A stretch of 58,908 bases of DNA from an uncultured Candidatus Saccharibacteria bacterium (lineage in GTDB: Bacteria; Patescibacteriota; Minisyncoccia; JACPXH01). The notes beneath the pieces are model-generated. The model was not told the origin of the DNA. It saw only the letters and a list, made by a program, of their open reading frames with translations, and did no database searches. Below, piece by piece: positions 3,878-45,668 of the stretch. A program made the position numbers and the translations under genes. The DNA lies in NCBI GenBank assembly GCA_964409225.1, contig CAYPCM010000003.1, forward strand, positions 1 through 58,908, in the 5' to 3' direction. Within the stretch, counting starts at the first letter, position 1. Every line of letters starts with the position of its first letter.

Positions 3878-3883
3878 AGCCAA

Positions 3884-3992
3884 AATTTTCAATTTTGAAT
3901 TTTTAATTTCCAATGAATAATGAATATTGAATGGTCGAATTTTGAAACATTCAGTCATTCGAGTTTGATTCGAAATTCAGAATTCAAAATTC
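3884..3992. repeat. 7-nt-periodic AATTTTG/GAATT imperfect inverted-repeat element overlapping the 3' end of rpe
   Basis: Left arm aattttc-aattttg-aattttt-aatttcc-aatgaat-aatgaat; right arm cattcag...gaaattc-agaattc-aaaattc. Confidence 0.75.
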
Positions 3993-15129: not shown

Positions 15130-15159
15130 GCAACGCACCACCTACGGTCGTATCGCGCC

Positions 15160-16098: not shown

Positions 16099-16195
16099 AA
16101 TGGCAACTCAAGTATCCCTTGCCCAATGAGGCCTACGAACTCTCCCTACTTGCTTACCGGCAAACAGAGCTCGGCAGCGCTGCTCGGAACATAAC

Positions 16196-17101: not shown

Positions 17102-17102
17102 A

Positions 17103-18059: not shown

Positions 18060-18060
18060 G

Positions 18061-19080
18061 CTACGCCTCCAACTGGCGGTAAAACTCAACGTACCGCGCC
18101 ACGCCATCTTCGAGCGCGAACTTGGGGTTGTAGCCAAGCGTCTTTCTCGCACGGCTGATGTCGAGGGTGCCGCGCTCGGGGCGCTTGACCGGATCTTCGC
18201 CCGCGAGTTTGATCTTCAGATTGGGAAGGTGATGCCGGACTATCTCGGATAACTCCAAAAGAGTCCGACCCTGCCCCCGCGTCAAATTGAATGTACCGCC
18301 CGCGGCCGCGGGGAGAGTGGCAGCGAGATAAAACCCTTCGGCCACATCTTCAACAAAAGTGAAATCGAGCCGTGAGGTGCCAGCATTAAACAGGGTTACT
18401 TCGCGGCCTTCTAGGCCGGACTCGATCACACGCTGCACGATCCGCCGGTTGCAGTCCGTGGGCCCGTAGACCGCCGATGGTCGGATAACCACCATTTCCA
18501 ACCCGAACATCGTCTGGAAGGAACTCGCAAGAATTTCACCGGCGAGTTTGGTGGCCCCGTACGTCTCGAGAGGCCTGGTGGGATGGTCTTCGGCCGCGGG
18601 GTTGCCTGAAGTGAAATCTCCGTACGCCATGCTCGAAGAGGTGTAAACCACGCGCCTAACCGCACCGTTCAAATCTTTGGCGGCAGTCAGGATGTTTGTA
18701 GTCCCCTGCAGATTGATGGCGAACATATCCTCGATGAAGCGCTTGGAGGCATCGGCAATCGGGATCGCCGCCAGATGCACAATCACGTTGGGGCGATCCT
18801 GCTCGAGGCTGCGCCGGAGCAGCGAAACGTTGCGGATGTCACCTTCGATAACGGTGAGCGCTTCGGTGCCGAGGGGATTGTTCTCAAGCGCCTGACGGAG
18901 CCTGGCGAGTCGCAAGTTGAGAAACTGGTGGTACCGGGGATTATCCCACGGCGGCAGGAAGGATTTGAAGGCATCGTAGATAACCACCCGGTGCCCGACC
19001 GCGAGCAATTTGGCGGCCAGGTGACTCCCAATAAGCCCGGCGCCGCCGGTGATAAAGAATGTCTCGGCTTTGTCCGTCAC
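18061..19080 (-). CDS. NAD-dependent epimerase/dehydratase (extended SDR)
   Basis: GGAGLIG, TSSSMAYG and YGATK motifs. GTG start at 19080 with AAGGA SD and GTGA overlap. Confidence 0.9.
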   Translation of the reverse strand: MTDKAETFFITGGAGLIGSHLAAKLLAVGHRVVIYDAFKSFLPPWDNPRYHQFLNLRLARLRQALENNPLGTEALTVIEGDIRNVSLLRRSLEQDRPNVIVHLAAIPIADASKRFIEDMFAINLQGTTNILTAAKDLNGAVRRVVYTSSSMAYGDFTSGNPAAEDHPTRPLETYGATKLAGEILASSFQTMFGLEMVVIRPSAVYGPTDCNRRIVQRVIESGLEGREVTLFNAGTSRLDFTFVEDVAEGFYLAATLPAAAGGTFNLTRGQGRTLLELSEIVRHHLPNLKIKLAGEDPVKRPERGTLDISRARKTLGYNPKFALEDGVARYVEFYRQLEA

Positions 19081-27210: not shown

Positions 27211-28080
27211 ATGAAAATGCTCATTACCGGAGGCACCGGGCTACTTGGCTCATGCCTCAAAAAGATATTCCCCACGGACGAGGTGTCCTTTACCTACCAT
27301 TCCCATCCGGTAGCGGGAGGCCACTGGCTTGATGTTTCTGATCGATCTGCCACGCTCTCCCTCATCTCCACCATGCAACCCGATATCACGATCCATACCG
27401 TTGCCGTCCCGAGCATGGATGTATGCGAAACGAACAAGTCTCTCGCGGAGCGGGTGAATATCGAGGGTACGCGGAACGTGATCGATGCCTGCCTTCGCGT
27501 TGGGAGCAAAATCGTCTATATCTCTACCCCCTGCGTGTTTGATGGAACGAAGGCTGTATTCACGGAAGACTCCCCCACCAACCCAATAAACTACTACGGC
27601 ATCACCAAACTCGAGGGAGAGAAAATCGTTGCGCGCTCGGGTCTGCCGTTCCTCATCATGAGAACCGATCAGCCGTACGGCTGGATCGAACCGTGGCAGA
27701 AAAAAAACTCTGTGGTGAGAGCCCTGGAGGTTTTGGACAAAGACGAGGAATTCAGAGAGGTGGTTGATTGGTACAACAACCCCACCTATGGAGAAGATTT
27801 TGCCGCCGCCGCAAAACAACTCATCGAAAAGAAGCGGGAAGGCATCTTCCACGTCGTAGGTCCCGACTACCTGAATCGGTACGAGTGGGCCCTCCGGATG
27901 GCAGAGGTGTTTGGGAAAGACGCAACGCTGATCAAACCAATCAACAGTCAAATGTTGCGCCTCAACGCAAAGAGAATAAACGCGAAGCTCAACACCGATA
28001 AGCTCGCGCGAGAAGGAATCAAGATGGCCGGCGTCTGGGAAGGGCTCCGGCGAATGAAGGCCGTACGGGAACGATCGTAG
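27211..28080 (+). CDS. dTDP-4-dehydrorhamnose reductase (RmlD/RfbD)-family SDR
   Basis: GGTGLLG, YIST..VFDG, PINYYGITKL.GE and NPTY..D.A motifs. Confidence 0.88.
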   Translation: MKMLITGGTGLLGSCLKKIFPTDEVSFTYHSHPVAGGHWLDVSDRSATLSLISTMQPDITIHTVAVPSMDVCETNKSLAERVNIEGTRNVIDACLRVGSKIVYISTPCVFDGTKAVFTEDSPTNPINYYGITKLEGEKIVARSGLPFLIMRTDQPYGWIEPWQKKNSVVRALEVLDKDEEFREVVDWYNNPTYGEDFAAAAKQLIEKKREGIFHVVGPDYLNRYEWALRMAEVFGKDATLIKPINSQMLRLNAKRINAKLNTDKLAREGIKMAGVWEGLRRMKAVRERS

Positions 28081-28086
28081 GCCGGC

Positions 28087-28536
28087 TTAGCGGTGTTTGA
28101 CTTCCCAATCGTAGGGAATCCGGGGATCAAAGGGGTCCATCCGCTCCATCTCTCCGTCTCGATGGGGTTCGGTCGCACAGTTAGCGAGGATTGCCGGCTG
28201 CGTGCCCATACCCTTGTGTCCGTTCACGACCCCGGGAGGAATTTTCACGAGGACATAGTTGTCGTCGCCGATGAATAGTTCCACAAGCTCACCGTGGGTT
28301 GTTGACGCCTCGCGGGCATCGTACAACACGAGCTTGATCATGCCGTGCACTACCGCATAGTTGAGTGTCGTCGTCCGATGGATGTGCCACCCCTTAATCA
28401 CTCCAGGATATATCTTGGAAAAATACACCTCCCCGAATTTCTCAAAATGGGGGGCATCGCTGCGAATCATATGCATAATAGTCCCTCGCTCATCGGGGAT
28501 TTTACGCAACGGTACTACTTCGACGCCGTCGATCAT
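28087..28536 (-). CDS. RmlC-like NDP-4-keto-6-deoxyhexose 3,5-epimerase (cupin)
   Basis: DERG, GVIKGWHIH and IPPGVVNG motifs. Confidence 0.85.
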   Translation of the reverse strand: MIDGVEVVPLRKIPDERGTIMHMIRSDAPHFEKFGEVYFSKIYPGVIKGWHIHRTTTLNYAVVHGMIKLVLYDAREASTTHGELVELFIGDDNYVLVKIPPGVVNGHKGMGTQPAILANCATEPHRDGEMERMDPFDPRIPYDWEVKHR

Positions 28537-28543
28537 ATTCTGT

Positions 28544-29557
28544 TCAAACTAATCGCAGTTGGGAATCGACCCTCTGCTCCGCGATGGCCTTCTTGAGGAA
28601 CGCAATGTTATGGAAGACGTCTTTCTCGAAATCGCCGGGGGAATACGGAAGTGAAGTGAGGAACCCGACAATTTCCCGGATCGACTTTTCTATCGTCATC
28701 TCTGGCTGGAAAGTTCCGAGTGTTTGGATCTTTAAAAAACTAACTCGGTAGGAACGCGGATCTCGCTGGGGATCCTTGGAGAACTCAATGTGCGCTCCGA
28801 GGACCGATTCGATCTGTGTTGCAATATCGATAACCCTAACATTCCCTGCATCCCAACCCACATTAAATACCTTTCCATGCACCTTTTCAGTTGGCTCGTG
28901 TAAGAGCACGAAGAACGCTTGCGCGATATCCCGAATGTGCACGAAGGGCCTCCAGGCGGTCCCGTCCGAGAGGATTTTTACCGTTCCGAATGCAAGCGCG
29001 TGTGCCACCATGTTGTTGATCGCGAGGTCGAACCGCATCCGCGGAGAAGCCCCATGCGCGGTCCCATTCCGGAGAATAACCGGGCAGAAGCGTTCATCGA
29101 CCAGACCGAGCAAGGCCTGTTCGGCAAGCACCTTAGACTTTGCATACTCCGAAACCGGCTCGGGTGCCGATGCTTCGTCCATGAGCTCGTCGCCGCGCGA
29201 CCCGTACACCGAACAGGACGAGGAGAACAGAAACCTTCCCACCCCCGCCGCTTTCGCGAGCACGGCCAACCGCTGGGTGGCAAGGAAGTTGATCTCCTGT
29301 GTCCAAGAGGAGTTCAACTCACCGGTTGGATCGTTCGAGAGCGCGGCCAGGTGGATGAGGGCGTCATGCCCGCGCAGGTCTTCTTCGGTCACATCCCGGA
29401 TGTCTTTGTAGAGTTGCCGCGCGGGCGGTTGGCGGAGTGGCCCAACCGAAGGGTAAAACCCGGTATCAATTCCCGTTACCGTAATGCCGCGTTCCGCCAG
29501 GAACGGCGCGAGCACGCTCCCGATGTAGCCGAGGTTTCCGGTAACGACAACCCTCAT
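28544..29557 (-). CDS. NAD-dependent epimerase/dehydratase (extended SDR)
   Basis: GNLGYIG, HLAALSNDP, SSCSVYG and YAKSK motifs; ATGA overlap with rfbF. Confidence 0.9.
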   Translation of the reverse strand: MRVVVTGNLGYIGSVLAPFLAERGITVTGIDTGFYPSVGPLRQPPARQLYKDIRDVTEEDLRGHDALIHLAALSNDPTGELNSSWTQEINFLATQRLAVLAKAAGVGRFLFSSSCSVYGSRGDELMDEASAPEPVSEYAKSKVLAEQALLGLVDERFCPVILRNGTAHGASPRMRFDLAINNMVAHALAFGTVKILSDGTAWRPFVHIRDIAQAFFVLLHEPTEKVHGKVFNVGWDAGNVRVIDIATQIESVLGAHIEFSKDPQRDPRSYRVSFLKIQTLGTFQPEMTIEKSIREIVGFLTSLPYSPGDFEKDVFHNIAFLKKAIAEQRVDSQLRLV

Positions 29558-30333
29558 ACTTTCCATATTTTCCAAGGGTGGTTGCCCGAACCCCACATGG
29601 CATTCAAATCCTCATAATCCCGTAACGTGTCCATGGAATGGAAAAACCCTTCATGGGGAAACATCATCAGCTGCCTGTCCTGAGCCAGTCGTACCAACGC
29701 ATCTTCAATGGTGTCCCCGGGCTTGAGATACTGAAATATTGCTGCCTCGAACACCATGAATCCGATATTGATGTAATTCGGGAGTCTCGGCTTCTGGGCG
29801 AATGCAGTAACCACCCCTCCCCCCCCCACCTCCAAAAGCCCGTATTTGTGGTGCCCGTGCCCTCCGGTGACGGTCGCGATCTTCCCCTGTTTCAAGTGGA
29901 ATTTCAGGAGCTCCGCAATGTTAACATCGGCAAGCCCATCCGCGTACGTCGCCATGAACCGCTGCTCGCCCTTGAGAAGATTTCGTACCCGAAGCAGCCG
30001 CTCACCGGTCTCGGCCTCCAAACCCGTATCAGCAAAACTGATCGTCCAATCGTCCACGTTATCGCTATGCGTCTTGATAGCGCCGGATTTGAGACTAAAG
30101 GTATAGTCATTCAACAAGTAGCGGTAGTTCGCGAAGTAGTGCTTGACGGTCTCCCCTTTATATCCCAGGGTAAGAATGAACTCCCGCAATCCAAACTTCC
30201 CGTACATTTTCATGATGTGCCAAAGAATTGGCTTTCCGCCAATGGGAACCATGGGCTTCGCGGTGAATTCTGTCATCTCCTTCAGCCGCGTTCCTTTCCC
30301 GCCGCAGAAGATGACTACCATGATGTCTCGCAT
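29554..30333 (-). CDS. rfbF: Glucose-1-phosphate cytidylyltransferase
   Basis: CGGKGTRLKE, KPMVPIGGKPILWHIMK, DTGL...TG.RL, TYADG and FHSMDTLRD motifs. Confidence 0.85.
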   Translation of the reverse strand: MRDIMVVIFCGGKGTRLKEMTEFTAKPMVPIGGKPILWHIMKMYGKFGLREFILTLGYKGETVKHYFANYRYLLNDYTFSLKSGAIKTHSDNVDDWTISFADTGLEAETGERLLRVRNLLKGEQRFMATYADGLADVNIAELLKFHLKQGKIATVTGGHGHHKYGLLEVGGGGVVTAFAQKPRLPNYINIGFMVFEAAIFQYLKPGDTIEDALVRLAQDRQLMMFPHEGFFHSMDTLRDYEDLNAMWGSGNHPWKIWKV

Positions 30334-30399
30334 ACGCCTAACTCGACGGTAACCCAACGAACGACCGAAATCAATATGGCCAGTGCGTGCTCCGTGATT

Positions 30400-31098
30400 T
30401 CAGCTCAGAAACAACGAATCTTTCCAGAATGCAAGGAGTTGCCTGAACATGAGGCCGGCCGTTGCAAAAGTAACATGTGATTTCCCACCCACCCGCCGCT
30501 GGTAGGGGATGGCAACGTGAACGATTCGCATGCCTCGTCGCCTCGCTTTCGTCAAAATCTCAATGTTGATCGCGAAGTTTGTTGACTGAATATCGAGAGC
30601 GTCGAAATCTTCCCGCGCAAGAACAAGCGGATGGCCATTGACGTCAGGAATCCACACGGAGAAGAGCGCGCTCGCCAGGAGACTGTAGCCGTAGCCCGTA
30701 AATTTCCGGAGGATGTTCTCCCGAGATATCCGTTTTGCCTTACACACCGCGTGCGGGTTTTTCCTTGCAGTATCAAAGATCTGTATCAGATACTCAGGGA
30801 GTACTTGGCCGCCCGCGGTGGTGAATCCGACATACTCCCCCCGGGCTATGCGCATCCCTGCGAGCACCCCTCCCCCCAACCCCGCATTCTCTCTGAGCGA
30901 AACTGTCCTTACCCGCGGGTTGTGCGCACATGATGCAAGAATCATTCCAGTGCGATCCCGGGAACCGTTATCCACGAGAATAAGTTCAGCATCCACCTCC
31001 TCCCCATCGCAGTAATCGAGGATTCTTTGGATAACAAAGGCGGCTTGGCGTTCTTCGTTATAGAAAGGGATAACAATTGAGTAGAGCGGTCGCCCCAT
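30400..31098 (-). CDS. GT2 glycosyltransferase (DPM1-like, soluble)
   Basis: VIPFYNEE, VDNGSRD, N.GLGG and EIL.KA motifs. The usual DxD reads TAGGQ. Start at MGRPL (31098). Confidence 0.8.
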   Translation of the reverse strand: MGRPLYSIVIPFYNEERQAAFVIQRILDYCDGEEVDAELILVDNGSRDRTGMILASCAHNPRVRTVSLRENAGLGGGVLAGMRIARGEYVGFTTAGGQVLPEYLIQIFDTARKNPHAVCKAKRISRENILRKFTGYGYSLLASALFSVWIPDVNGHPLVLAREDFDALDIQSTNFAINIEILTKARRRGMRIVHVAIPYQRRVGGKSHVTFATAGLMFRQLLAFWKDSLFLS

Positions 31099-31189
31099 AT
31101 CTCGATGCCCCATAGACGCTGAGCAACTCAAACAGGAAATCTTCGACAAAGTTCGAACGTATAATACCCTTACCCAGAAAGGGTTGTCC

Positions 31190-31651
31190 ACTGAACGCAT
31201 CCCCGCCTCGGGGAAGGTTTACGACGCGGAAGAACTCCTGAACCTGGTTGATACCTCACTCAAGTGATTCTGGACAGATGGCGAGGCGACGTCGCTCTTT
31301 GAAGCACGACTCGCCAAGTTCCTCGGGGTGCAGTACGCAGCCACCACGAACTCGGGTTCGTCCGCAAACCTTGTTGCCCTCTCCGCTTTCACTTCCCCGA
31401 TGCTCCCAGAAAAAAACGGCTACGCCCGGGAGATGAAGTAATAACAGTCGCCGCCGGGTTCCCAACCACCACCAAACAACCCTACTTTGTAAGCCATAAA
31501 TTCGCCTACCGGCTTACCTGGAACTTGGGAAACACCGACTTCATCATGCATAACGCCTTTTGGATCGGCGTGTATTCGGCCATGAAGGAACAACACATCG
31601 AAATACATCGGTTCGATATTCGACAGGTTCTTCAGAGAGAAAAAGCGGTAA
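31190..31651 (+). pseudogene. rfbH: rfbH/ddhC (CDP-4-keto-6-deoxyglucose 3-dehydrase E1) remnant with internal deletion, nonsense codon and two frameshifts
   Basis: RIPASGKVYDAEEL..LV..SL*FW...FE..LAKFLG....TNSGSSANL.AL..TSP.L...RLRPGDEVITVAAGFPTT is joined directly to KQPY.....YR....L.NTD.IM...FWIGVY......I.YI...F..FF. TGA at 31265; frameshifts at the A7 run (31410-16) and at 31601-03. Confidence 0.85.
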
Positions 31652-31814: not shown

Positions 31815-33038
31815 ATGCGTAACAGATTTCGGCCGGGCGTTGACAGGGTACTCTACACCCAAGCCGTCTACGGCAAAGAAGAAATCAATGCCGTCGTGCA
31901 GTGCCTGAAAGACGGCTGGCTTGGCCCGGGCAAGTACACCGCCGAATTCGAAGGGCGCGTGGCAAAACTCTTTGGCAAAAAGTACGGCCTCTTTGTGAAT
32001 TCTGGCTCTTCGGCCAACTACATTGCCCTGGAAATCGCCAAACTCCCCAAAGGATCAGAGATCATCGCCCAGGCCTGTACGTTCCCCACGACCTTAAACC
32101 CCATCATCCAACATGGGTACGTACCTGTATTCGTGGATTCGCGAGTTGGCAACTACAATATTGACATCCGCAAGCTTGAACGCGCCATCGGCCCCAGAAC
32201 CAAGGCCATTTTCATCTCGCACACCATCGGCAACATCAATGACATGGCGCGGATTCGGAAAATCTGCGATCAGCATAAGCTGCTTTTCATCGAAGACGCG
32301 TGCGATACCATCGCGAGTAAGTTTCGGGGCGAGCCCACCGGCCGCTGGTCGGATATCGTAACGACCAGCTTCTACGCCGCGCACAACATGACAGCGGGTG
32401 GCGGAGGTGGGATGGTCATGACCGATGATAAAGAGCTTATCCGGGAAGCCAAGATCTGCCGCGACTGGGGCCGGGCGCTCCCTGAAAACGAAGACGAAAA
32501 CATTGAGGAACGTTTCAGCTTCAAGGTGGGCGGCCGCGACTTCGACGGAAAATTCACACACGTCAAGATCGCCCACAACTTCAAACCCGTTGAGATGCAG
32601 GCCGCCTTCGGCCTGGCGCAGCTCAAAAAGCTGCCGCGCTTTAACCGCATCCGGGCACACAACTTCAAAAAACTCTACAACTTCTTCAAACGCTACGAGC
32701 ACCACTTCATCCTGCCCCAAATACACCCTGAGGCCGAAAGCTACCTCATCGCTTTCCCGCTTACGATCCGCAAAGCATCTCCCATCAAACGCAAAGACCT
32801 GCTCACGTATCTCGAAAAAAATCATATCCAGACCAGACTCCTCTTTACCGGTAACATCCTTCACCAACCGGCCTACCATAAAATCCGGCATCGCTTGGGC
32901 AGCTCGCTGAACAATGCCGACTATATCATGGACCGTTCCTTCCTCGTCGGCACACACCACGGGTTGACCGATGCGCACGTACAGTACATGATGCACACGT
33001 TTGAACGTTACCTGAATGCCCTACCCCAATCAGCATGA
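31815..33038 (+). CDS. DegT/DnrJ-fold PLP/PMP enzyme, RfbH/ColD-like 3-dehydrase (His at the Schiff-base Lys position)
   Basis: NSGSSAN, TFPTT.NP, IEDACD, SFYAAHNMT, RDWGR and TRLLFTGN motifs. Start at MRNRF (31815). Confidence 0.85.
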   Translation: MRNRFRPGVDRVLYTQAVYGKEEINAVVQCLKDGWLGPGKYTAEFEGRVAKLFGKKYGLFVNSGSSANYIALEIAKLPKGSEIIAQACTFPTTLNPIIQHGYVPVFVDSRVGNYNIDIRKLERAIGPRTKAIFISHTIGNINDMARIRKICDQHKLLFIEDACDTIASKFRGEPTGRWSDIVTTSFYAAHNMTAGGGGGMVMTDDKELIREAKICRDWGRALPENEDENIEERFSFKVGGRDFDGKFTHVKIAHNFKPVEMQAAFGLAQLKKLPRFNRIRAHNFKKLYNFFKRYEHHFILPQIHPEAESYLIAFPLTIRKASPIKRKDLLTYLEKNHIQTRLLFTGNILHQPAYHKIRHRLGSSLNNADYIMDRSFLVGTHHGLTDAHVQYMMHTFERYLNALPQSA

Positions 33039-34864
33039 AGCTGACTGACTACCTCGCCCAATTCCTCACGGCACAAAAGATCAAACACGTATTCCTCGTC
33101 ACCGGCGGGGCCTGCGCTCATATTATTGACTCGCTCGGAAAACACCCACGCATCGGGTACGTCTGCACCCAGCACGAGCAGGCTGCCGCAATGGCCGCCG
33201 AGGCCTACAGCCGCGTCACTAAAAACCTCGGGGCGGCGGTCGCCACTTCTGGCCCCGGGGCGACAAACCTGATAACCGGCATCTGCTGCGCGTGGTTTGA
33301 TTCGATCCCGACACTCTTCATCACCGGCCAAGTCAATACCCATGAAACCAAGGGGAAGCGCAAAATCCGGCAGCTGGGCTTCCAAGAAACCGACATCGTG
33401 GACATTGTGCGTCCCATCACCAAGTTCGCCCAGCTCATCACCGATCCAAGCCAGATTAGGTACGTCCTGGAGAAAGCCGTATATCTCGCGCGCTCTGGCC
33501 GGCCGGGCCCGGTACTCATCGACATCCCCCTGAACGTACAGCACGCAGAGATCAATCCCGCGAAACTCAAACGGTTCAGTCCCCGCGAGATCGAACAACC
33601 CAGAAACGTGCGCCGCCTGCGCGTCCAAGCGGCTAAAGCCATCCAACTGCTCGGGAAGGCATCTCGACCGATTATCTTGGCGGGCGGGGGCATCAAACTC
33701 GGCCGGGCCGAAGGGCTCTTCCGGAACCTGATTGACAAGATCAAAATCCCGGTGGTCGCCTCTTGGAGCGGTATTGACGTCCTAGCGCACACGCATCCCG
33801 CCTACGTGGGGCAGATTGGCGTCTACGGCGGGCGAGCGGCAAACTTTGCCATTCAAAATTCGGATCTACTCCTCGCCATCGGCTCGCGTCTGGACACCCG
33901 CCAGACCGGCGGCCAGCCCCAAACCTTTGCCCGAGAAGCGACTAAAGTCGTCGTGGACATTGATCGGGCAGAACTGACCAAAAACTGGGTGAAACCCGAC
34001 CTCGCCATCGAGGCCGACGCCAATGATTTCATTGCCGAATTGCTCCGTGAGCTACCCCGGTTGAAGCGCCCCGACATCACCCCGTGGGTGAAGCGCTGCC
34101 GCACCTGGAAGCAACGGTACCCGGCGGTGCTGCCCGCGTGGCACCAGCAGCAAGGCTCGGTCAACTCGTACGTGTTCATAAAGACCCTCGCGGAAGAGCT
34201 CAAATCTTCGGACGTCATCATCACTGACATTGGCGGAGTTTCAACCTGGACGCTCCAGGCCTTTACCGTCAAGCCCAAGCAGATGCTATTTTCGGCCATG
34301 GGCCACGGCCCCATGGGCTATGCGTTGCCAGCCTCGATCGGGGCGTGGTTCGCGGCGCCGCGCCGGCGCATCGTCTGCATTGCCGGCGACGGCGGATTCC
34401 AGTTGAATCTCCAGGAACTTCAGACGGTCGCGAAATACCGAGTGCCGGTGAAAATATTCATCCTTAACAACGCGAGTTACGGCATCATTAAACAATTCCA
34501 AGAGACCTACTTTGGGGGTCGCTACGAAGCCACCTCGAAACGGTACGGCTATAGCTGTCCGGATTTTGTGAAAGTGGCGAAGGCCTATGGGCTTACGTCT
34601 GAACGGATCCGGAACCACGACGAAATGCGAACAAAAATCAGCAGGGTGTTACACGCCAAGGGGCCGGCGCTGTGCGATGTACAGATTGCCCAAGACCAGA
34701 AACTAATCCCGAAACTCATCGCCCACCGCACCAAAGACGGCCGCTACATCTCGAAACCCATTGAAGACCAGACCCCATTTCTTCCACGCAAAGAATTCCT
34801 TGCCAACATGATCGTTAAACCGGTCGATGAAACACCCGCGCCCAAGGCCTCCGAAATCCACTAA
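33035..34864 (+). CDS. ThDP-dependent enzyme, acetolactate synthase/YerE-like
   Basis: HEQAAAMAAE, TSGPGATN and GDGGFQ.N.QE...NN motifs; ATGA-coupled to the upstream gene. Confidence 0.9.
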   Translation: MKLTDYLAQFLTAQKIKHVFLVTGGACAHIIDSLGKHPRIGYVCTQHEQAAAMAAEAYSRVTKNLGAAVATSGPGATNLITGICCAWFDSIPTLFITGQVNTHETKGKRKIRQLGFQETDIVDIVRPITKFAQLITDPSQIRYVLEKAVYLARSGRPGPVLIDIPLNVQHAEINPAKLKRFSPREIEQPRNVRRLRVQAAKAIQLLGKASRPIILAGGGIKLGRAEGLFRNLIDKIKIPVVASWSGIDVLAHTHPAYVGQIGVYGGRAANFAIQNSDLLLAIGSRLDTRQTGGQPQTFAREATKVVVDIDRAELTKNWVKPDLAIEADANDFIAELLRELPRLKRPDITPWVKRCRTWKQRYPAVLPAWHQQQGSVNSYVFIKTLAEELKSSDVIITDIGGVSTWTLQAFTVKPKQMLFSAMGHGPMGYALPASIGAWFAAPRRRIVCIAGDGGFQLNLQELQTVAKYRVPVKIFILNNASYGIIKQFQETYFGGRYEATSKRYGYSCPDFVKVAKAYGLTSERIRNHDEMRTKISRVLHAKGPALCDVQIAQDQKLIPKLIAHRTKDGRYISKPIEDQTPFLPRKEFLANMIVKPVDETPAPKASEIH

Positions 34865-35825
34865 CCCCGATACCGATCGGGTGCTGATAACGGGTGCGAC
34901 GGGGTTTGTCGGCGCAAACCTGGCCCGCGCGCTCGTTCAACAGGGCCGGCAGGTCGCCGTCATCACGAGGCAAAACTCTAATCCTTGGCGGCTCGCCGAG
35001 GTGCAGGGTTCGCTCGAACAGCACGTGGCCGACCTCGCCGACGCGCCCGCGCTTCGGCAGATCGTCCAGAAGGTTCAACCCACCGTCATCTTTCATGCGG
35101 CGGCGGCTTCGGTCTACGGCGATCAAGTGCCTGCCACTGAATCGGAGATGGTCCGGAGTAATCTCATCGGCACCATGAACCTCATCCGCGCGTGCGCCGA
35201 CATCAACTACCGCTGTTTTGTGAACACCGGCAGCTCCTCGGAGTACGGTCCGAAAACCGAACCGATGGTCGAAACCGATCTAGCCGCACCCCGCGACATC
35301 TACGGCGTTACCAAGTGCGCGGCCACCCACTTCGCCGCGGCCGTCGCACGCCAAGAGCACAAACCCATTTTGACTCTTCGACTCTTCTCGCCATTCGGCC
35401 CCTATGACGACCCCCGGCGGCTGATTCCAACCGCTATAGTAGCCGCGCTCACAAGCCGCGATATCAAACTTGCGCGTCCGGAGATTGGCCGCGATTACGT
35501 TTTCATTGATGACGTGGTGGCCGCATATTTGGCTGCGGTCGAGCGCGCCCGGGAAAACGAAGGGGAAATTATTAACATCGGCTCTGGCCGGCAGACGACA
35601 CTCGAAGAAACCGTCGCCACCCTCTTCACGCTCGTGAAGTCGCCCGGCCGGGCGCTGTGGGGCGCGGCCCCGGGCTCGCCCCAGGATAACCCCCTCTGGC
35701 AGGCCGATATAGAGAAAGCCCGCGAGCGCCTGGGTTGGCAACCCCGGGTGGCGTTCCGGGAGGGCTTGCGCCAGACAGTAGAGTGGTTTCGCGAACACCT
35801 CGATCGCTACGCTTTTTCGCCATGA
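34827..35825 (+). CDS. NAD-dependent epimerase/reductase (extended SDR)
   Basis: GATGFVG, GSSSEYG and YGVTK motifs. Alternative GTG start at 34881. Confidence 0.9.
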   Translation: MKHPRPRPPKSTNPDTDRVLITGATGFVGANLARALVQQGRQVAVITRQNSNPWRLAEVQGSLEQHVADLADAPALRQIVQKVQPTVIFHAAAASVYGDQVPATESEMVRSNLIGTMNLIRACADINYRCFVNTGSSSEYGPKTEPMVETDLAAPRDIYGVTKCAATHFAAAVARQEHKPILTLRLFSPFGPYDDPRRLIPTAIVAALTSRDIKLARPEIGRDYVFIDDVVAAYLAAVERARENEGEIINIGSGRQTTLEETVATLFTLVKSPGRALWGAAPGSPQDNPLWQADIEKARERLGWQPRVAFREGLRQTVEWFREHLDRYAFSP

Positions 35826-36637
35826 CTCCCGCCCGGCTCAAAACACTTGAGCACCACGCTCGAAACATCCGACGGCAAACCCTCACCATGACGAGCCGGG
35901 TCAAGGCGGCGCACACGGGCGGGTCGCTGTCGGTAGCTGATATCCTGACGGTACTCTACTTTCAGATCCTCCGCCTGAATCCGAAACGGCCGCACGACCC
36001 AAGCCGCGACCGGCTGCTCTTCAGCAAGGGGCACGCCGCCGCAGCGCTCTACGCCACACTTGCCGAGCGCGGCTTTTTCTCGCCAAAAATGCTCGATGGT
36101 TTCTACCGCAACGGCACGCTGCTCACCGGGCACCCCACGCGTAACTGTCTCCCCGGGGTCGAAGTCACTTCTGGTTCGCTCGGACACGGTTTGGCTATGG
36201 GTGCGGGGCTGGCCTGGGCCGCGAAACTCGACCGTAAGCCCTACCGCACCTTCGCCATCTTGAGCGACGGGGAATGTGACGAGGGTTCAGTGTGGGAGGC
36301 GATACTCGCTGCCGGCCATCGCCGACTCGATAACCTCATCGCCATTATCGACTACAACAAGCTCCAGAGCTTCGGCACCACCAAAGAAGTGCTGGATTTG
36401 GAACCGTTCAAAGCGAAATGGGCTGCTTTTCGATGGACAGTGCGCGAGGTTGACGGACACGACCTGACCGCGCTTACTACGCTCTTGAGTCGCGTTCCAT
36501 TCCGGAAAGGCAGACCGAGTGCGATCATCGCGCATACGATCAAGGGCAAGGGAGTGTCATTTTATGAAAACACCCTCAAATCCCACTACCAGCCGCTCGA
36601 CGAGCAGCAACTCGCCGACGTACTCGCCACCCTATGA
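35822..36637 (+). CDS. Transketolase-like N-terminal subunit (second copy, glycan locus)
   Basis: HTGGSLS, SKGHA, GHP, GSLGHGL, SDGECDEG and HTIKGKG motifs; ATGA overlap fixes the start at 35822. Confidence 0.9.
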   Translation: MTPARLKTLEHHARNIRRQTLTMTSRVKAAHTGGSLSVADILTVLYFQILRLNPKRPHDPSRDRLLFSKGHAAAALYATLAERGFFSPKMLDGFYRNGTLLTGHPTRNCLPGVEVTSGSLGHGLAMGAGLAWAAKLDRKPYRTFAILSDGECDEGSVWEAILAAGHRRLDNLIAIIDYNKLQSFGTTKEVLDLEPFKAKWAAFRWTVREVDGHDLTALTTLLSRVPFRKGRPSAIIAHTIKGKGVSFYENTLKSHYQPLDEQQLADVLATL

Positions 36638-37560
36638 GACCTGCATTCGTTCGCGCCCTCACTGCTGCCGCTGCCAAAGACCGACGGATCGTGCTGCTCA
36701 CTGGCGACCTTGGCTATAACGCCCTCGAACCTTTCAAGGATAGGTTCCCGGACAGATTCCTCAACATGGGCTTGTCTGAACAGAACATGGTGGGGTTTGC
36801 GGCCGGGCTCGCGCTCGCCGGCAAAATCCCCGTCGTCTACTCCATCGCGACCTTCATGACGCTCAAAACCGTGGAGCAGCTGCGCAACGACGTTTGCTAC
36901 CAAGGACTCAATGTGAAAGTTGTGGGGGTTGGCGCGGGGCTCACCTATTCGCAGTACGGCGCGACCCACCACGCGACTGAAGACATTGCGCTGATGCGAC
37001 TCTTACCCTCCATGAAAGTTATCTGCCCGGGCGATCCTGTTGAGGTGACTGGGGCAACACATGCCCTGCTCAAGGATCCCGCACCCTGCTATTTGCGCAT
37101 TGGCGCACGGGGCGAACCCAACATCCACCCGAAATCCATTTCGTTCCGGATCGGCCGAGGGTACCTGGTGCGGCCGGGCAAAGATGCGGTGCTCATCGCA
37201 ACCGGCAATATGCTGGCCAACACCGTTGCGGCGGCTCAGATCCTGGCTAAACGCGCCGCCCACATGACGGTAGTCAGCATGCCAACGGTTAAACCCCTCG
37301 ACGAAGCACTCCTGCGCAAGCTTGGCCGCACCTTCCGCCATCTCTTTACCGTTGAAGAACACACGACCATCGGCGGATTCGGCAGCGCGGTGGCCGACTT
37401 TCTCGCGGACGAACATGAACAACCACGCCTGCACCGCATCGCGCTCGCAGACGAATTCCAGAAGACCACGGGCTGGCTCGATTGGCTACGAGCACAAAAC
37501 GGCCTCTCACCAGAAGGCATAGCCAAAACGGTATTGAGGACGCTCAAGAAACGCTCATGA
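36634..37560 (+). CDS. Transketolase-like C-terminal subunit (second copy)
   Basis: LTGDLG, GLSEQNM, GATHH and TVEEH motifs. Confidence 0.9.
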   Translation: MRPAFVRALTAAAAKDRRIVLLTGDLGYNALEPFKDRFPDRFLNMGLSEQNMVGFAAGLALAGKIPVVYSIATFMTLKTVEQLRNDVCYQGLNVKVVGVGAGLTYSQYGATHHATEDIALMRLLPSMKVICPGDPVEVTGATHALLKDPAPCYLRIGARGEPNIHPKSISFRIGRGYLVRPGKDAVLIATGNMLANTVAAAQILAKRAAHMTVVSMPTVKPLDEALLRKLGRTFRHLFTVEEHTTIGGFGSAVADFLADEHEQPRLHRIALADEFQKTTGWLDWLRAQNGLSPEGIAKTVLRTLKKRS

Positions 37561-38504
37561 TGACCGCGAAGAAAATTTCCGCCATCATTGCCTGCTACAA
37601 GGACGAACCGGCAATTCCGATCATGTACGAGCGGCTCACGCGGACCTTCCAGAAGATCGGCCCGAATTACGAGATCGTCTTCGTCAACGATGGCAGCCCG
37701 GACAACTCGGAAGCGGTACTCGCCGAATTAGCGGCTCAAGATCAACACGTGGTGGTAATCAACCACTCTCGTAATTTCAGCACCCAGAACGTTCATTTGA
37801 GCGGCATGGAAATCGCAACCGGCGATGCGGTGGTGCTACTCGACGGCGACTTGCAAGATCCGCCCGAACTCATTGAACAGTTCGCCGAGAAGTGGCTCGA
37901 GGGCTATGACGTGGTTTACGGCATCCGGGTCAAACGCGAGGCCCCGGGCTGGATGCAAATTGCCTATAAGCTTTTCTACCGAATTTTCCAGAAACTCGCG
38001 TACGTGAAGATCCCCCTTGATGCCGGCGATTTTTCGCTTCTGGACCGCAAAGTGGTACGCGTCTTAAACCAAATGCCAGAGGTAGATCGTTTCACCCGCG
38101 GCATGCGCGCTTGGGTAGGATTTCGTCAAACCGGCGTCCCCTACGTACGGCCCGAGCGAATGTTCGGCCGCTCCACCAATAATCTCTGGCGGAACATCCG
38201 GTGGGCGAAAAAGGGCATATTTTCCTTCTCGTACGCACCGCTTGAGTGGGTTTCGTTCATTGCGGGGGTCGTAACGGTGCTCGCCGCCCTCGCCATTGTG
38301 GTTTATATAGTCCTCGCCATCATATGGCCTGCCCCGCGCGGGTTCCTGTCAATACTCATGGCCATTCTCTTTTTCGGAGCAGTGCAGCTTTTGGCGCTTT
38401 CGGTCATCGGTGAATACATTGCCAAAATCTTCGAAGAGGTCAAACGCCGTCCAAAGTTCATTGTAAAAAGCATATTCAATGATCCTCGACAGAAGACGCC
38501 CTGA
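37557..38504 (+). CDS. GT2 polyprenol-phosphate glycosyltransferase (GtrB type), paralogue of 15160-16098
   Basis: VNDGSPD, SRNF, LDGDLQDPPE and RAWVGFRQTGVPYVR motifs; two C-terminal TMs; ATGA overlap start. Confidence 0.9.
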   Translation: MMTAKKISAIIACYKDEPAIPIMYERLTRTFQKIGPNYEIVFVNDGSPDNSEAVLAELAAQDQHVVVINHSRNFSTQNVHLSGMEIATGDAVVLLDGDLQDPPELIEQFAEKWLEGYDVVYGIRVKREAPGWMQIAYKLFYRIFQKLAYVKIPLDAGDFSLLDRKVVRVLNQMPEVDRFTRGMRAWVGFRQTGVPYVRPERMFGRSTNNLWRNIRWAKKGIFSFSYAPLEWVSFIAGVVTVLAALAIVVYIVLAIIWPAPRGFLSILMAILFFGAVQLLALSVIGEYIAKIFEEVKRRPKFIVKSIFNDPRQKTP

Positions 38505-38509
38505 AACTA

Positions 38510-38538
38510 TTGACGAAACAATGCAGTGATGCTACAGT
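38510..38538 (+). promoter_or_regulatory. Putative sigma70 promoter
   Basis: TTGACG, 17-nt spacer, TGc-TACAGT. Confidence 0.65.
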
Positions 38539-38581
38539 GGCCTAACCTGCGTGCCATGAACGAAAATAGAGGAGGAGAGGG

Positions 38582-39127
38582 ATGGACCAGACGGATGATG
38601 CGACCTTCTGCAGGCTTGGCGATCAGCTCATTGAAGAACGTAAGCGAGGGATCCGGTGGTCGCCGGATGTTTTTGAGGTGGCGCTGCGACTCATGTGTCC
38701 GGCTGCCTTCGAGGCGGTCATCCCGCGGTGGGTGCCCGACGGCACCCTGCGGGGATCGCTCGAGGTGTGGCTGGCCAAACGCAGCGCTGACGAGCTGGCC
38801 TTCCCGGACATGTGGCACGGCCCAGGCACTTACTTCGTGCCTGGCGAGAGCGACGAGGACACCGCACTGCGCCTCGTCAACAAGGAACTCGGGCCTGCTC
38901 GCCTCGTCAAATTCGAGCAGGTGACCTCTATTAACCTGCGCCACGACCTGCGCTTCCGTGCGAGCACGCGGAGCGTAATCTTCTGTTGCTGGCTCGACGG
39001 CCTTCCGGCCAAAGGCCGATGGTGGCGGGTTGACCGCCTCGGTGAGGTAAACCTCATCGACTCGCACCACGAGATCATCGCCCTTGGGCTCGCGCCTTTC
39101 CTGCGGAACCCACAGCGTTTCTACTAG
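38582..39127 (+). CDS. Nudix hydrolase, GDP-mannose mannosyl hydrolase (Gmm/NudD)-like
   Basis: WHGPGT....GES.ED..LRL..KELG variant Nudix box; AGGAGG SD. Confidence 0.65.
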   Translation: MDQTDDATFCRLGDQLIEERKRGIRWSPDVFEVALRLMCPAAFEAVIPRWVPDGTLRGSLEVWLAKRSADELAFPDMWHGPGTYFVPGESDEDTALRLVNKELGPARLVKFEQVTSINLRHDLRFRASTRSVIFCCWLDGLPAKGRWWRVDRLGEVNLIDSHHEIIALGLAPFLRNPQRFY

Positions 39128-39143
39128 CGCCTCGCACAAACTG

Positions 39144-39176
39144 CAGGTCCGACACCGTTCGACGGTGTCGGACCTG
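39144..39176. terminator. Perfect 15-bp hairpin between convergent genes (bidirectional terminator or REP-like element)
   Basis: CAGGTCCGACACCGT-tcg-ACGGTGTCGGACCTG. Confidence 0.7.
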
Positions 39177-39200: not shown

Positions 39201-41261
39201 CTATCCGGTCGGACGCGCTACCTTTAGCCGATAAACATCAAGCGTGCGCAGCGTTTCAACCTTGTCGTACCGCTCTTGAACCCGCGCCATGAAGTATTGA
39301 ACCTGATCGTTTGGCTCGCGCGCGACGAACAGATACGGCGGCGGCTCGGCCCTTGTCTGCATAGCGAGCGCATCCATCTGGGAGGCAAAAAAGATGTTAA
39401 AAAGATAATAGGAGTCGAGGGCATTTGGCCGCTCGGCAGAAATGAGTACCTGCGTGTCGCGCGGGGAAATCACGGCGAGGCGTTTGAGCTGCGGGTAACG
39501 TCGTGCCATCGTCCTACCATCCTCGTATTCAGCCCGCCACGAGAGTTCTCGCTCCCCAAAACCGCTCAAGCTTTCAGAAATACGGCGGTAATCTCGCCCG
39601 GCGAACTCTACCGGCGCCTTGGCAATGAAAAGCAACGCCGCCAAGCAAACCAGGGCATAGGCAGCGGCAGTGAGCGTCCGGCTCGACCAAGCCGGCTCAA
39701 GCCGAACCTCGTCTCCAAGGGCATAGTGCTTAAAAAAATAGAGTAACACGAGTACCAGTGGACCCGTAGTCAGATACAGGTTCTGCCAGGACGATTCACC
39801 AACGTAATAGAGTAAGTTGAAAATTCCGAAGAAAAAGAGAAACACGAGCGGCAGGTCCAACGTACGACCTTGCTGATGCTCCGAGAAAAGCACGAGGCCA
39901 ACGACGAGGTACAAAAATACCATCACCTCAAAAACGCCGAGCGCCGGCAGCGGGGTCATGCCAATACCCGCTCCGAAGTGAGCAACCTCTCGCCAAATGA
40001 GCGCCCAATTCGGCAAGACCCCGAAGACAGCCGCGTTCACGAGACCGACAAGGGCAGCCACCACACCGATCGCCAGCGCATACTGTCCGGCAAGTCGCAG
40101 GAGCACGAGTACCGGTCGACTAGCAGAACGAGTGGCGCAATACGCAAAGGCGAGAAACGATGCGGCAACGACATATAAGCCCGCGTCAAAGACCCAAAAA
40201 AGCGCGACAGCCGAGCAGAAGATCGCGCCCGTGCGCCAGATGGGCCGACCCGTTTTGCTGAAAGCGAGAAGTAAAAAAAGTATCAGCAGGTACCAGCCGT
40301 AGCGCAGCGGCGTCATGGCCGGGAAAAACAGGGCTGAACGGGTTGGGCTCGTCTGGAAAAGGTACAGGATCGAATAGAGGCAGAAAATGCCGACCATGGC
40401 CAAGAGCCGTGAGTGGAGCCACTGCTTGATGAACAGATACATCCCCACAAAGAACGCGCCGAAGAAGAAGGTGATGATGAGGGCGGCCATCGGGTAGGTC
40501 AACGGAAGCAGGTACGTAAAGACGAAGGCGAGAAAGTATACGTCGAAGAGCCCGTACAGATGGGTGGTTTCGTAGAGCAGCGCCTTGCCGTAGAGCATGT
40601 CGTTGACCGACCCCAAGAAGAAATTGTAGTGGTGCGGATCCAACGGGAAATTTGGGTGGAAGACGGCGAGCGCAATCGCGAAAACGAGGAATGCCTCAAA
40701 CTTTCCCCACCCCGGATATGCAGCGGTGCGCCGCAGCCAGGCGAACCCGGGTCGGCGGCGCGAAAACAAAAACCATACGAATACGGCCGCACTCACCAAT
40801 AAGATAAGAGTGGTTATGAAAATGCGCTTGGTGAACAAAAGCCAGAGTGCTTGGCTGAATCCTGCCGTGGCTAGGTAGTCCAGGTAAAAACTGAAATTGA
40901 TGCGACTCAAGCGCCAGGCAACCAGCAGGACCCCCGAGACAGCTACCATAAGAAGCAACAAACGCAAAGCGCCCGGCGACACCTTCGGTACTCGTCGCAG
41001 ACCCGAATACAAAAACCAGGCCAGGAGCGGGATTACAAGGTAACCGGCAAGGTAGAGCGCCGCCTCGAGTGGCTCGGGTTGAGAAAGCCGGCTAAAACTC
41101 GCAAAGAGGTCGGGCGCCGACCGCGCCAAGCCGAACGTGTGATAAAGCCAGTCCTGCAGGAAACGACTGGCCGCAAAATACACCGCCACGGCCACGGCTA
41201 AGGCCGCGCCGTACTGCGGCCGCTCGAGAACTTGTTCGCTGAACCGTCGCCACCAACTCAT
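39201..41261 (-). CDS. Large multipass membrane protein, putative GT-C transferase (paralogue 1 of 3)
   Basis: PNFPLDPHHYNFFLGSVNDMLYGK.LLYET..LYGL loop; about 13-15 TMs; C-terminal TLDVYR. Confidence 0.7.
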   Translation of the reverse strand: MSWWRRFSEQVLERPQYGAALAVAVAVYFAASRFLQDWLYHTFGLARSAPDLFASFSRLSQPEPLEAALYLAGYLVIPLLAWFLYSGLRRVPKVSPGALRLLLLMVAVSGVLLVAWRLSRINFSFYLDYLATAGFSQALWLLFTKRIFITTLILLVSAAVFVWFLFSRRRPGFAWLRRTAAYPGWGKFEAFLVFAIALAVFHPNFPLDPHHYNFFLGSVNDMLYGKALLYETTHLYGLFDVYFLAFVFTYLLPLTYPMAALIITFFFGAFFVGMYLFIKQWLHSRLLAMVGIFCLYSILYLFQTSPTRSALFFPAMTPLRYGWYLLILFLLLAFSKTGRPIWRTGAIFCSAVALFWVFDAGLYVVAASFLAFAYCATRSASRPVLVLLRLAGQYALAIGVVAALVGLVNAAVFGVLPNWALIWREVAHFGAGIGMTPLPALGVFEVMVFLYLVVGLVLFSEHQQGRTLDLPLVFLFFFGIFNLLYYVGESSWQNLYLTTGPLVLVLLYFFKHYALGDEVRLEPAWSSRTLTAAAYALVCLAALLFIAKAPVEFAGRDYRRISESLSGFGERELSWRAEYEDGRTMARRYPQLKRLAVISPRDTQVLISAERPNALDSYYLFNIFFASQMDALAMQTRAEPPPYLFVAREPNDQVQYFMARVQERYDKVETLRTLDVYRLKVARPTG

Positions 41262-45515: not shown

Positions 45516-45668
45516 CGCTTTTTTTTCGAACAAGAAAGGCGGGGGGACACGCTGCCCGCGAATCGGTCGCGTACCCGCCATTCGTCGAGCACAAAAATCT
45601 GCTCAGTGATTGACATGATCGTACAACGCACCGTGAAAACCCGCTGTTACTATAGCGTACCCGCTTGT

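Follow-up and report, generated by a model that had tools for sequence, protein, structure and literature searches.

To our knowledge, the only sugar-branching enzymes proven to work are those of the YerE type and the pyruvate dehydrogenase E1 (PDH-E1) type. Sugar branching of the YerE type is established (PMC9306805): YerE acts with DdhA-D/E1-E3 and YerF in the CDP-yersiniose A pathway of Yersinia pseudotuberculosis, and the YerE-like lyases include ErwE, MMAR_2332, MyGE and JanthE (PMC9306805, PMC12247030, PMC12188165). Split transketolases (TKs) have been proposed to add a hydroxyacetyl group to a keto-sugar in the pathways of the Streptomyces nucleoside antibiotics miharamycin and amipurimycin, with 13 predicted Streptomyces enzymes (Krug et al. 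2024), none of them characterised (PMC12247030). Here we describe an operon that encodes both a YerE-like enzyme dependent on thiamine diphosphate (ThDP) and a split TK. It lies at 31815-38504 of a stretch of 58,908 nucleotides (the window) from an uncultured Candidatus Saccharibacteria bacterium, and it is a composite of two modules. Module A (31815-34864) comprises an RfbH-like 3-dehydratase, predicted to be free of iron-sulphur (Fe-S) clusters, and a YerE-like ThDP lyase. Module B (34827-38504) is a widespread, uncharacterised cassette with a short-chain dehydrogenase/reductase (SDR) of the SSSEYG type, a remodelled split TK and a GtrB-type polyprenyl-phosphate glycosyltransferase. We consider it roughly 60% probable that both carboligases branch nucleoside diphosphate (NDP)-keto-sugars and that the operon feeds a lipid carrier.

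Layout of the operon and comparison with described pathways

The operon contains six genes with the following assignments.

31815-33038, plus strand: RfbH-like 3-dehydratase of the DegT family (RfbH model NF011936, 403.6 bits; cut-off 423)
33035-34864, plus strand: YerE-like ThDP lyase (TPP_enzyme_N/M/C)
34827 (ATG) or 34881 (GTG) to 35825, plus strand: extended SDR
35822-36637, plus strand: TK-N chain (Transketolase_N)
36634-37560, plus strand: TK-C chain (Transket_pyr and Transketolase_C)
37557-38504, plus strand: GtrB/ArnC-type family 2 glycosyltransferase (GT2; best NCBIfam models PgfS and ArnC)

The window is the whole of contig C3 in a genome of 883,525 bp and 60 contigs that is 98% complete, and nearly all of the nearest homologues of the proteins encoded in the operon belong to Patescibacteria. 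Domains of the window genes were assigned by Pfam and NCBIfam profile searches, which recovered the six-gene plus-strand run with the domains described in an earlier note on this DNA. The ATGA overlaps said there to join most of the genes are found at four of the five junctions (at 33035, 35822, 36634 and 37557), and the ThDP enzyme and SDR genes overlap by 38 nt if the latter starts at the ATG at 34827. This grouping is not due to chance, since many unrelated contigs carry the same sets of genes.

As in the CDP-yersiniose and other YerE-like systems, an E1-family 3-dehydratase with His is encoded directly upstream of a ThDP enzyme resembling acetohydroxyacid synthase (AHAS); this enzyme matches the structures of the YerE-like lyases best and has their insertion, and an SDR follows. 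A glucose-1-phosphate cytidylyltransferase-like gene also lies nearby in the window, as would fit the CDP-yersiniose A pathway. In contrast to that pathway, the dehydratase has no [2Fe-2S] cysteines, E3 and CDP-glucose 4,6-dehydratase are missing, the SDR belongs to the TK cassette, and a second carboligase, the split TK, is added. Besides, the product would go to a GtrB-type polyprenyl-phosphate transferase and GT-C enzymes instead of an O-unit glycosyltransferase, and the host is a member of the Patescibacteria and not a Gram-negative with lipopolysaccharide. Unlike the Erw, MMAR and Myg clusters, the window has no aldolase.

Regarding the split TK, it shares with those of miharamycin and amipurimycin (PMC12247030) the two-gene organisation, a ketone-capable oxidoreductase beside it, a set of sugar-tailoring genes and a function that has been inferred, the likeness being one of gene context. 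The latter belong to secondary-metabolite clusters of Streptomyces, whereas the window type is an envelope glycan cassette of Patescibacteria, Bacillota, metagenome-assembled genomes (MAGs) of Pseudomonadota and others and is, unlike them, tied to a polyprenyl-phosphate GT2.

The ThDP enzyme of module A is YerE-like

PF02776, PF00205 and PF02775 all match the ThDP protein (33035-34864) over its full length, and it carries the motifs 'HEQAAAMAAEAY', with the catalytic Glu, and 'GDGGFQLN...ILNNASYG', which is the GDG...NN motif for ThDP. Among PDB entries it ranked 8rph first (415 bits) and then 5ahk (365 bits), compared with 295 bits for E. coli AHAS I and 280 bits for yeast AHAS. We take 5ahk to be the YerE homologue of Pseudomonas protegens (PpYerE). 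The top match, 8rph, is JanthE (PMC12188165). An insertion of 6-10 residues after 'GQV' is found in the ThDP protein, in both YerE-like structures and in every RfbH-linked homologue collected, but not in E. coli AHAS I.

The best NCBIfam model of the protein is TIGR00118 (acetolactate synthase large subunit), with a score of 466 bits that lies below the cut-off of 538. Neither ilvN (TIGR00119) nor ilvC (TIGR00465) had a match in the 98%-complete genome, with positive controls in 13/14 and 14/14 genomes, respectively, and the ThDP protein is the sole TPP_enzyme_C protein encoded there. We base the choice between YerE-like and IlvB on the bit-score ranking, the shared insertion and the genome content. 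All of them favour the YerE-like assignment made in the earlier note, and the IlvN and IlvC partners that it named as signs of a biosynthetic enzyme were not found in the genome. Homologues adjoin RfbH-like genes in many of the related loci (denoted here by L numbers), namely L001, L014, L023, L024, L025, L030, L053, L055, L056 and L061. The predicted reaction of the enzyme is the attachment of an acyl branch to an NDP-keto-sugar.

The dehydratase of module A lacks the Fe-S cysteines

The RfbH-like protein (31815-33038) matched E1 (3bcx) with 291 bits and ColD with 171 bits. Its active-site 'SFYAAHNMT' aligns with 'SFYPAHHIT' of E1, and a His replaces the Lys of aminotransferases. The segment that bears the [2Fe-2S] cysteines in E1 reads 'ALPENEDENIE', without any Cys, and the longer E1 stretch around it corresponds to 'RDWGRALPENEDENIEERF'. 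Members of the clade have 0-1 Cys in this segment, compared with 3-4 in Firmicutes E1-type genes, and the missing motif is common to about 45 of them, from Patescibacteria, SAR11 and some gammaproteobacterial MAGs. Regarding the FNR-like reductase E3, PF00175 (NAD_binding_1) was unmatched in the whole genome, with 11/14 control genomes positive. Of the identity with DdhC (RfbH) claimed earlier, the sequence similarity and the active-site His stand, while the cysteines of E1 and an E3-type reductase domain in the genome are missing.

The sequence predicts an NDP-4-keto-sugar 3-dehydratase of an Fe-S-free variant, dependent on pyridoxamine or pyridoxal 5'-phosphate (PMP/PLP). By analogy, it may work in the manner of ColD, with PLP and glutamate, and would therefore need no E3 reductase. 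Its His base and the loss of the Fe-S motif match the ColD type, yet its similarity is lower to ColD than to E1. A remnant of another dehydratase gene lies directly upstream.

~31133-31651, plus strand: decayed canonical (E1-type) rfbH, with N- and C-terminal pieces, an in-frame stop and a large internal deletion

By tblastn, this remnant gave 79-83 bits against the canonical Fe-S RfbH of L050 and L056, including the 'TSP.L....GDEVITVAAGFPTT' insert, and 46 bits against the adjacent intact gene. The presence of a decayed E1-type rfbH next to an intact Cys-less gene suggests gene replacement, that is, a locus that has swapped its dehydratase. The Cys-less, His-bearing clade is also common in SAR11 single-cell genomes (Pelagibacteraceae loci L033-L052, L059 and L060), there without an adjoining TK or YerE-like gene.

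The split transketolase of module B is remodelled

The window contains another split TK (3011-3958 and 1288-2289), located among Rpe, GAPDH and PfkB genes, to which the chains of the operon pair are 42% and 36% identical. Between the halves of this housekeeping TK there is an open reading frame (ORF) of 203 amino acids (2375-2986, minus strand) with no Pfam match. We built a tree of 71 TK-C chains with IQ-TREE, in which the canonical group consisted of the housekeeping chain of the window, 27 relatives and ChyTK of Carboxydothermus hydrogenoformans. A single branch with 100/100 support parted the canonical from the glycan-linked chains, so the tree bears out the earlier statement that the two pairs are distinct. 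The housekeeping chain was sister to its same-genus orthologue, and the operon chain fell in a clade that mixes phyla.

We then counted residues over the 120 nearest TK-N and the 120 nearest TK-C relatives, using the E. coli numbering. The ThDP/metal-binding and catalytic residues (H26, H66, H100, D155, N185, H261, E411 and H473) are complete in the window pair and are each shared by 113-120 of the 120 relatives; for the six residues of the TK-N chain the counts were 119, 120, 120, 118, 120 and 113, in that order. The residue following H261 is Tyr in 119/120 TK-N relatives and Gly in the housekeeping chain. In the TK-C clade R358, E411 and H473 are retained. Position 461, a His in E. coli, is Gly in the operon chain and in all 120 relatives, and position 469, an Asp in E. 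coli, is Tyr in the operon chain and never Asp among the relatives (Y 49, L 27, N 18, A 12, others 14). Both His461 and Asp469 are kept in the housekeeping TK of the window, its 27 relatives and ChyTK.

ChyTK (6yaj) is also the best PDB match of the TK-C chain, with 206 bits. The operon TK has the same two-chain build as ChyTK and the housekeeping TK, with the ThDP/metal motif, H26/H66/H100/H261, E411 and H473 in common. It differs from them in the changes His461 to Gly and Asp469 to Tyr, in a variable residue at the R520 position, in its separate clade (100/100), in a glycan rather than pentose-phosphate context and in a patchy spread that resembles horizontal gene transfer (HGT). The retention of the cofactor and donor residues together with the loss of His461 and Asp469 points to an enzyme that is canonical on its cofactor and donor side and rebuilt on its acceptor side. 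Previous reports show that D469 substitutions, in engineered as well as natural TKs, move the acceptor preference away from 2-hydroxyaldehydes, and that a split TK with a naturally occurring D469L change can use hydroxypyruvate (PMC13663882).

TKs of the glycan type are rare: an even sampling of 400 Patescibacteria species genomes gave 4 carriers and the 40 class relatives gave 1, with a patchy, HGT-like distribution. The same-genus genome G001 has neither a YerE-like gene nor a glycan-type TK. Locus L050 (13779-15280), from the cultured Bacillota strain Cohnella rhizosphaerae DSM 28161, has RfbF, a canonical Fe-S RfbH and a glycan-type split TK; its TK region looks frameshifted or garbled in the assembly and was not relied on.

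Module B is a self-standing cassette

The operon SDR (34827-35825) is an extended SDR of the 'N[TA]G[ST]SSEYG / YG..K' type, with no TDE or SDK motif, and is the constant partner of the TK cassette. Orthologues with 38-43% identity (64% in L009) are encoded directly upstream of the TK pair in L009, L013, L019, L072, L103, L104 and L105. The complete SDR-TK-GT2 arrangement recurs in L009, L072, L103, L104 and L105, with 38-64% identity for the SDR and 53-79% for the GT2; in the last four of these loci the GT2 that comes after the TK pair is 53-60% identical to ours. These cassettes often have an interposed methyltransferase, and require neither an RfbH-like nor a YerE-like gene. SDR-TK-GT2 is, in other words, a self-standing cassette. 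By comparison with the CDP-yersiniose pathway, the SDR might take the place of YerF; given its recurrence with TK pairs in the absence of RfbH and YerE, it is a TK partner and need not be a YerF. A paralogue of the operon SDR (17103-18152, minus strand; 'AGSSSEYG') has a His in place of the catalytic Tyr of YxxxK ('HGVAK') and may be inactive or mechanistically altered.

Other loci combine the parts in different ways. TK pairs adjoin RfbH-like genes in L009, L013, L019, L020, L022, L024, L032, L050 and L071, and in L019, L020 and L071 they occur with RfbF, an SDK-type dehydratase and RfbH-like genes. L001 has a YerE-like gene with RfbH-like genes and a GtrB-like GT2, and no TK. L009, the nearest relative, has another split TK at the place where the window has its YerE-like gene; its RfbH-like gene is 83% identical to ours at the nucleotide level and the downstream membrane genes are syntenic. 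Two carboligases per locus are found in the window, in L009 and L013 (TK and TK) and in L024 (YerE-like and TK). L024 carries every part of the window set, with its SDR-TK operon separate.

L024 also contains, at 13937-17613 (plus strand, uncultured bacterium), a trio of acetaldehyde dehydrogenase, DmpG-type aldolase and YerE-like ThDP enzyme (DmpF/DmpG/ThDP), which adjoins the SDR-TK operon and two PTPS_related membrane proteins. This trio follows the same logic as ErwJ/ErwI/ErwE of erwiniose (PMC9306805).

A GtrB-type transferase and GT-C-fold membrane proteins

The last gene of the operon had been read as a polyprenyl-phosphate transferase, and our results agree. The GT2 (37557-38504) matched Synechocystis GtrB sll0501 (5ekp) with 250 bits over residues 6-307 of 315, and ArnC with 141 bits, and it has two transmembrane segments (238-256 and 266-284), both C-terminal. 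Convergent to the operon there are four genes for membrane proteins, the first three of which are paralogues.

39201-41261, minus strand: polytopic membrane protein, one of three paralogues of 671-725 amino acids
41258-43273, minus strand: second paralogue
43404-45581, minus strand: third paralogue
45669-48098, minus strand: YfhO-like (GT-C family) membrane protein (PF09586, 47.2 bits, C-terminus)

The three paralogues have 10-15 hydrophobic segments, are syntenic with L009 and gave no Pfam match, nor did 60 members of their family, which is small (337 representatives among 1.84 billion proteins). Kinship with the YfhO-like gene was considered and rejected, there being no BLASTP similarity. 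An AlphaFold2 (AF2) model of 39201-41261 reached a pLDDT of 92 and a pTM of 0.92. When it was searched against the PDB with Foldseek, the top 15 matches were all GT-C enzymes with probability 1.00, the best being ArnT 5f15 (E 1.9e-4, TMt 0.52), followed by PglB, STT3, DPY19 and ALG9. On the basis of this model, the paralogues adopt a GT-C fold and are candidate users of polyprenyl-phosphate-sugar.

The arrangement recalls GtrA/GtrB/GtrC and ArnC/ArnT, in that the GT2 matches GtrB over its full length, has the two C-terminal transmembrane helices and is adjoined by GT-C-fold proteins. It departs from them in the donor, predicted to be a C-branched NDP-sugar and not UDP-glucose or UDP-Ara4FN, in GT-C proteins that form a small family without a Pfam model, and in the lack of GtrA in the locus. 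The gene set fits a path from NDP-sugar to polyprenyl-phosphate-sugar, flipping and GT-C transfer outside the membrane.

Nucleotide-sugar supply

Upstream of the run, a divergent operon (28087-31200, minus strand) probably supplies the nucleotide sugar.

30400-31200, minus strand: GT2
29554-30357, minus strand: RfbF-like glucose-1-phosphate cytidylyltransferase (TIGR02623, 259.5 bits; cut-off 300)
28544-29596, minus strand: GalE/C4-dehydrogenase-like SDR
28087-28536, minus strand: small RmlC-like cupin

The RfbF gene that had been noticed nearby is, accordingly, present as an RfbF-like gene. The SDR of this operon has no TDE/SDK dehydratase motif, and its best PDB match is 6vo6 (105.8 bits), presumably Cj1427, a C4-dehydrogenase, so a 4-keto sugar may be formed here with no loss of the 6-OH. 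No CDP-glucose 4,6-dehydratase of the SDK/TDE type was found near the operon or anywhere in the genome. We considered the operon SDR for this role, as it is the best TIGR02622 match of the genome, and rejected it, given its score of just 91 bits and its 'SSSEYG' in place of TDE/SDK. The only 4,6-dehydratase of the genome is RmlB, encoded beside a long-form RmlA on contig C8 (13180-15413, minus strand). The genes of the dTDP-rhamnose type are split, with RmlA/RmlB on C8 and RmlC-like (28087-28536) and RmlD-like (27211-28080) genes in the window.

The acceptor could thus be a dTDP-4-keto-6-deoxyhexose or a CDP-4-keto-hexose with its 6-OH retained. Since the genome lacks a CDP-glucose 4,6-dehydratase, the 'CDP' and 'deoxy' of the pathway named in the earlier note are unproven.

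In Campylobacter jejuni, tailoring of GDP-heptose proceeds through the C4-dehydrogenase Cj1427 and then a PLP/glutamate-dependent C3-dehydratase (PMC10680097). An Fe-S-free 3-dehydratase acting on a 4-keto sugar, with a small cupin epimerase alongside, is common to that pathway and the window, where the 4-keto sugar could likewise come from the C4-dehydrogenase-like SDR. The two differ in the nucleotide, which in the window is probably CDP or dTDP and not GDP, in a dehydratase nearer to E1 than to ColD (291 vs 171 bits), and in the absence of ThDP enzymes from the C. jejuni pathway.

Surroundings of the operon

Most of the window is a glycan-biosynthesis island with GT2, GT4 and GT9 enzymes, a Wzx-like flippase and methyltransferases, together with a B12-radical-SAM enzyme, a carbamoyltransferase, a Wzy_C/TPR protein and PMT_2/YfhO-like proteins. 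Immediately downstream of the operon we found two further features.

38582-39127, plus strand: NUDIX hydrolase, seventh plus-strand gene (PF00293, 27.2 bits; cut-off 21.1)
39144-39176: hairpin terminator with a 15-pair stem (10 G-C) and a T-rich tail

Unlike the ATGA-coupled genes, the NUDIX gene has its own promoter-like site (38510-38538) and a strong Shine-Dalgarno sequence, 'GAGGAGGAGAGGG', ahead of its ATG. It is possibly an NDP-sugar pyrophosphatase. A homologue with 30% identity lies between the YerE-like gene and the GT2 in L001/L011 (in L001, a Yanofskybacteria locus, at 11889-12428, minus strand). The ORFs 38507-39139 (minus strand) and 38526-38924 (plus strand) were discarded as genes, as they match no family and the real gene there is the plus-strand NUDIX. 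The terminator is located between the plus-strand run and the convergent membrane-protein genes.

Proposed route and alternatives

From what was observed, namely the families of the proteins, their residue signatures, the linkage of the genes, the separate TK clade and the GT-C fold, we infer a route in five steps together with its substrates, the donors of both carboligases, its order of reactions and its final acceptor. An NDP-4-keto-hexose, supplied either by the divergent RfbF/SDR/cupin operon or by RmlA/RmlB on C8, would first be 3-deoxygenated. The YerE-like enzyme would decarboxylate a 2-oxo acid, probably pyruvate because no aldolase is present, and put the acyl group on the sugar ketone. 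The TK-like enzyme would put a two-carbon unit on an NDP-keto-sugar, using as donor a ketol such as hydroxypyruvate or a ketose, since the donor-side histidines are intact; its partner SDR would either make the ketone or reduce the new side-chain carbonyl. The GT2 would move the finished sugar or sugars onto polyprenyl phosphate and, following flipping, the three GT-C-fold paralogues and the YfhO-like protein would attach them to envelope acceptors.

Several points weigh against this route. The genome is a metagenome assembly. Its lack of a recognisable CDP-glucose 4,6-dehydratase leaves a gap on the way to the 4-keto substrate. The acceptor and donor of the TK clade are deduced from sequence, and R358, conserved in the TK-C chain, could still serve a phosphorylated substrate. 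The TM-scores behind the GT-C assignment are modest (0.35-0.52), and a GtrA-type flippase is absent from the window, the only one of the genome being at C6:9062-9448. Finally, both carboligases need a ketone and C4 becomes a tertiary alcohol after one addition; therefore, the two would be competitors unless another ketone is formed. Within the branching framework, we give a little less than even odds to two alternative branched sugars arising from one shared 3-deoxy-4-keto intermediate for which the enzymes compete, and we rate these parallel routes slightly higher than the formation of two C-C bonds in succession on one sugar.

The latter, put forward earlier as two ThDP-derived extensions, is not supported as written, although it is one of the two live readings. 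In it, one nucleotide sugar would pass through the enzymes in the order of their genes, from the 3-dehydratase to the YerE-like enzyme (acyl group at C4), the SDR (making or unmasking a second carbonyl), the TK (a second two-carbon unit) and the GT2, to yield a sugar that is doubly branched or has a higher carbon number and that contains two different C-C bonds of ThDP origin. Translational coupling of all five enzymes, with a single SDR placed between the carboligases and a single GT2, would suit such a sequence, as would the pairs of carboligases in L009, L013 (TK and TK) and L024 (YerE-like and TK) and the existence of long branched sugars in nature (erwiniose, caryophyllose and gastriose; PMC9306805). 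However, other loci have one module without the other, accompanied by a GtrB-like GT2 of its own, so that either module suffices; the modules of L024 are separate, oppositely oriented operons; and the known long branches come from aldolase-made keto acids, not from a second ThDP step. We find this double extension unlikely.

One could also argue that the split TK is metabolic support, producing or recycling a small aldehyde or ketose for the keto-acid donor of the YerE-like enzyme or for the hexose pool, or extra pentose-phosphate capacity. Its canonical cofactor and donor-side residues and R358 would allow it, transaldolase or aldolase genes lie near some cassettes (TAL_FSA in L106, DmpG in L104), and natural and engineered D469 variants keep ordinary ketol transfer to aldehydes (PMC13663882). 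Nevertheless, a housekeeping TK is already there in a pentose-phosphate context, and His461 and Asp469 are gone in 120/120 relatives. The SDR and the polyprenyl-phosphate GT2 flank the TK without YerE-like, aldolase or RfbH-like genes in L072, L103 and L105, the TK takes the YerE-like slot in L009, and the TK type is rare (4/400 phylum genomes) and patchy. A supporting role is, in consequence, very improbable.

A last reading, in which the ThDP enzyme would serve as an acetolactate synthase, biosynthetic or catabolic, in a run that mixes amino-acid and sugar genes by chance, is effectively refuted, despite TIGR00118 being the top NCBIfam model, by the score short of its cut-off, by the missing ilvN and ilvC in a nearly complete genome with positive controls, by the YerE-like closest structures and insertion, and by the repeated linkage of homologues to RfbH-like genes.

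Implications

C-branched sugars are rare determinants of surface antigenicity, and branching enzymes that form tertiary alcohols are wanted as biocatalysts. For a TK-type branching enzyme, the locus and its relatives provide a sequence signature that can be tested, together with the conserved SDR-TK-GtrB cassette. What the window adds is an operon in which YerE-like and TK genes are translationally coupled, a connection to GtrB and GT-C, and the observation that TK and YerE-like enzyme swap places in near-identical operons, as seen in the near relative. Sequential action of both carboligases, if it occurs, would yield a new class of sugar. It is tempting, if doubtful, to go further and see the remodelled split TKs, with Gly at His461 and no Asp at 469, as a large unrecognised third class of nucleotide-sugar C-branching enzymes, acting here after a YerE-like lyase on the same sugar to give a lipid-carrier-linked sugar with two different ThDP-derived C-C bonds; both the sugar and its pathway would be of a kind hitherto undescribed.

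The cassette is set in the cell envelope of the ultra-small Patescibacteria, a group whose surface chemistry is essentially unknown. In this organism, the operon probably builds rare C-branched sugars that are passed to a membrane lipid carrier for decoration of the cell surface.

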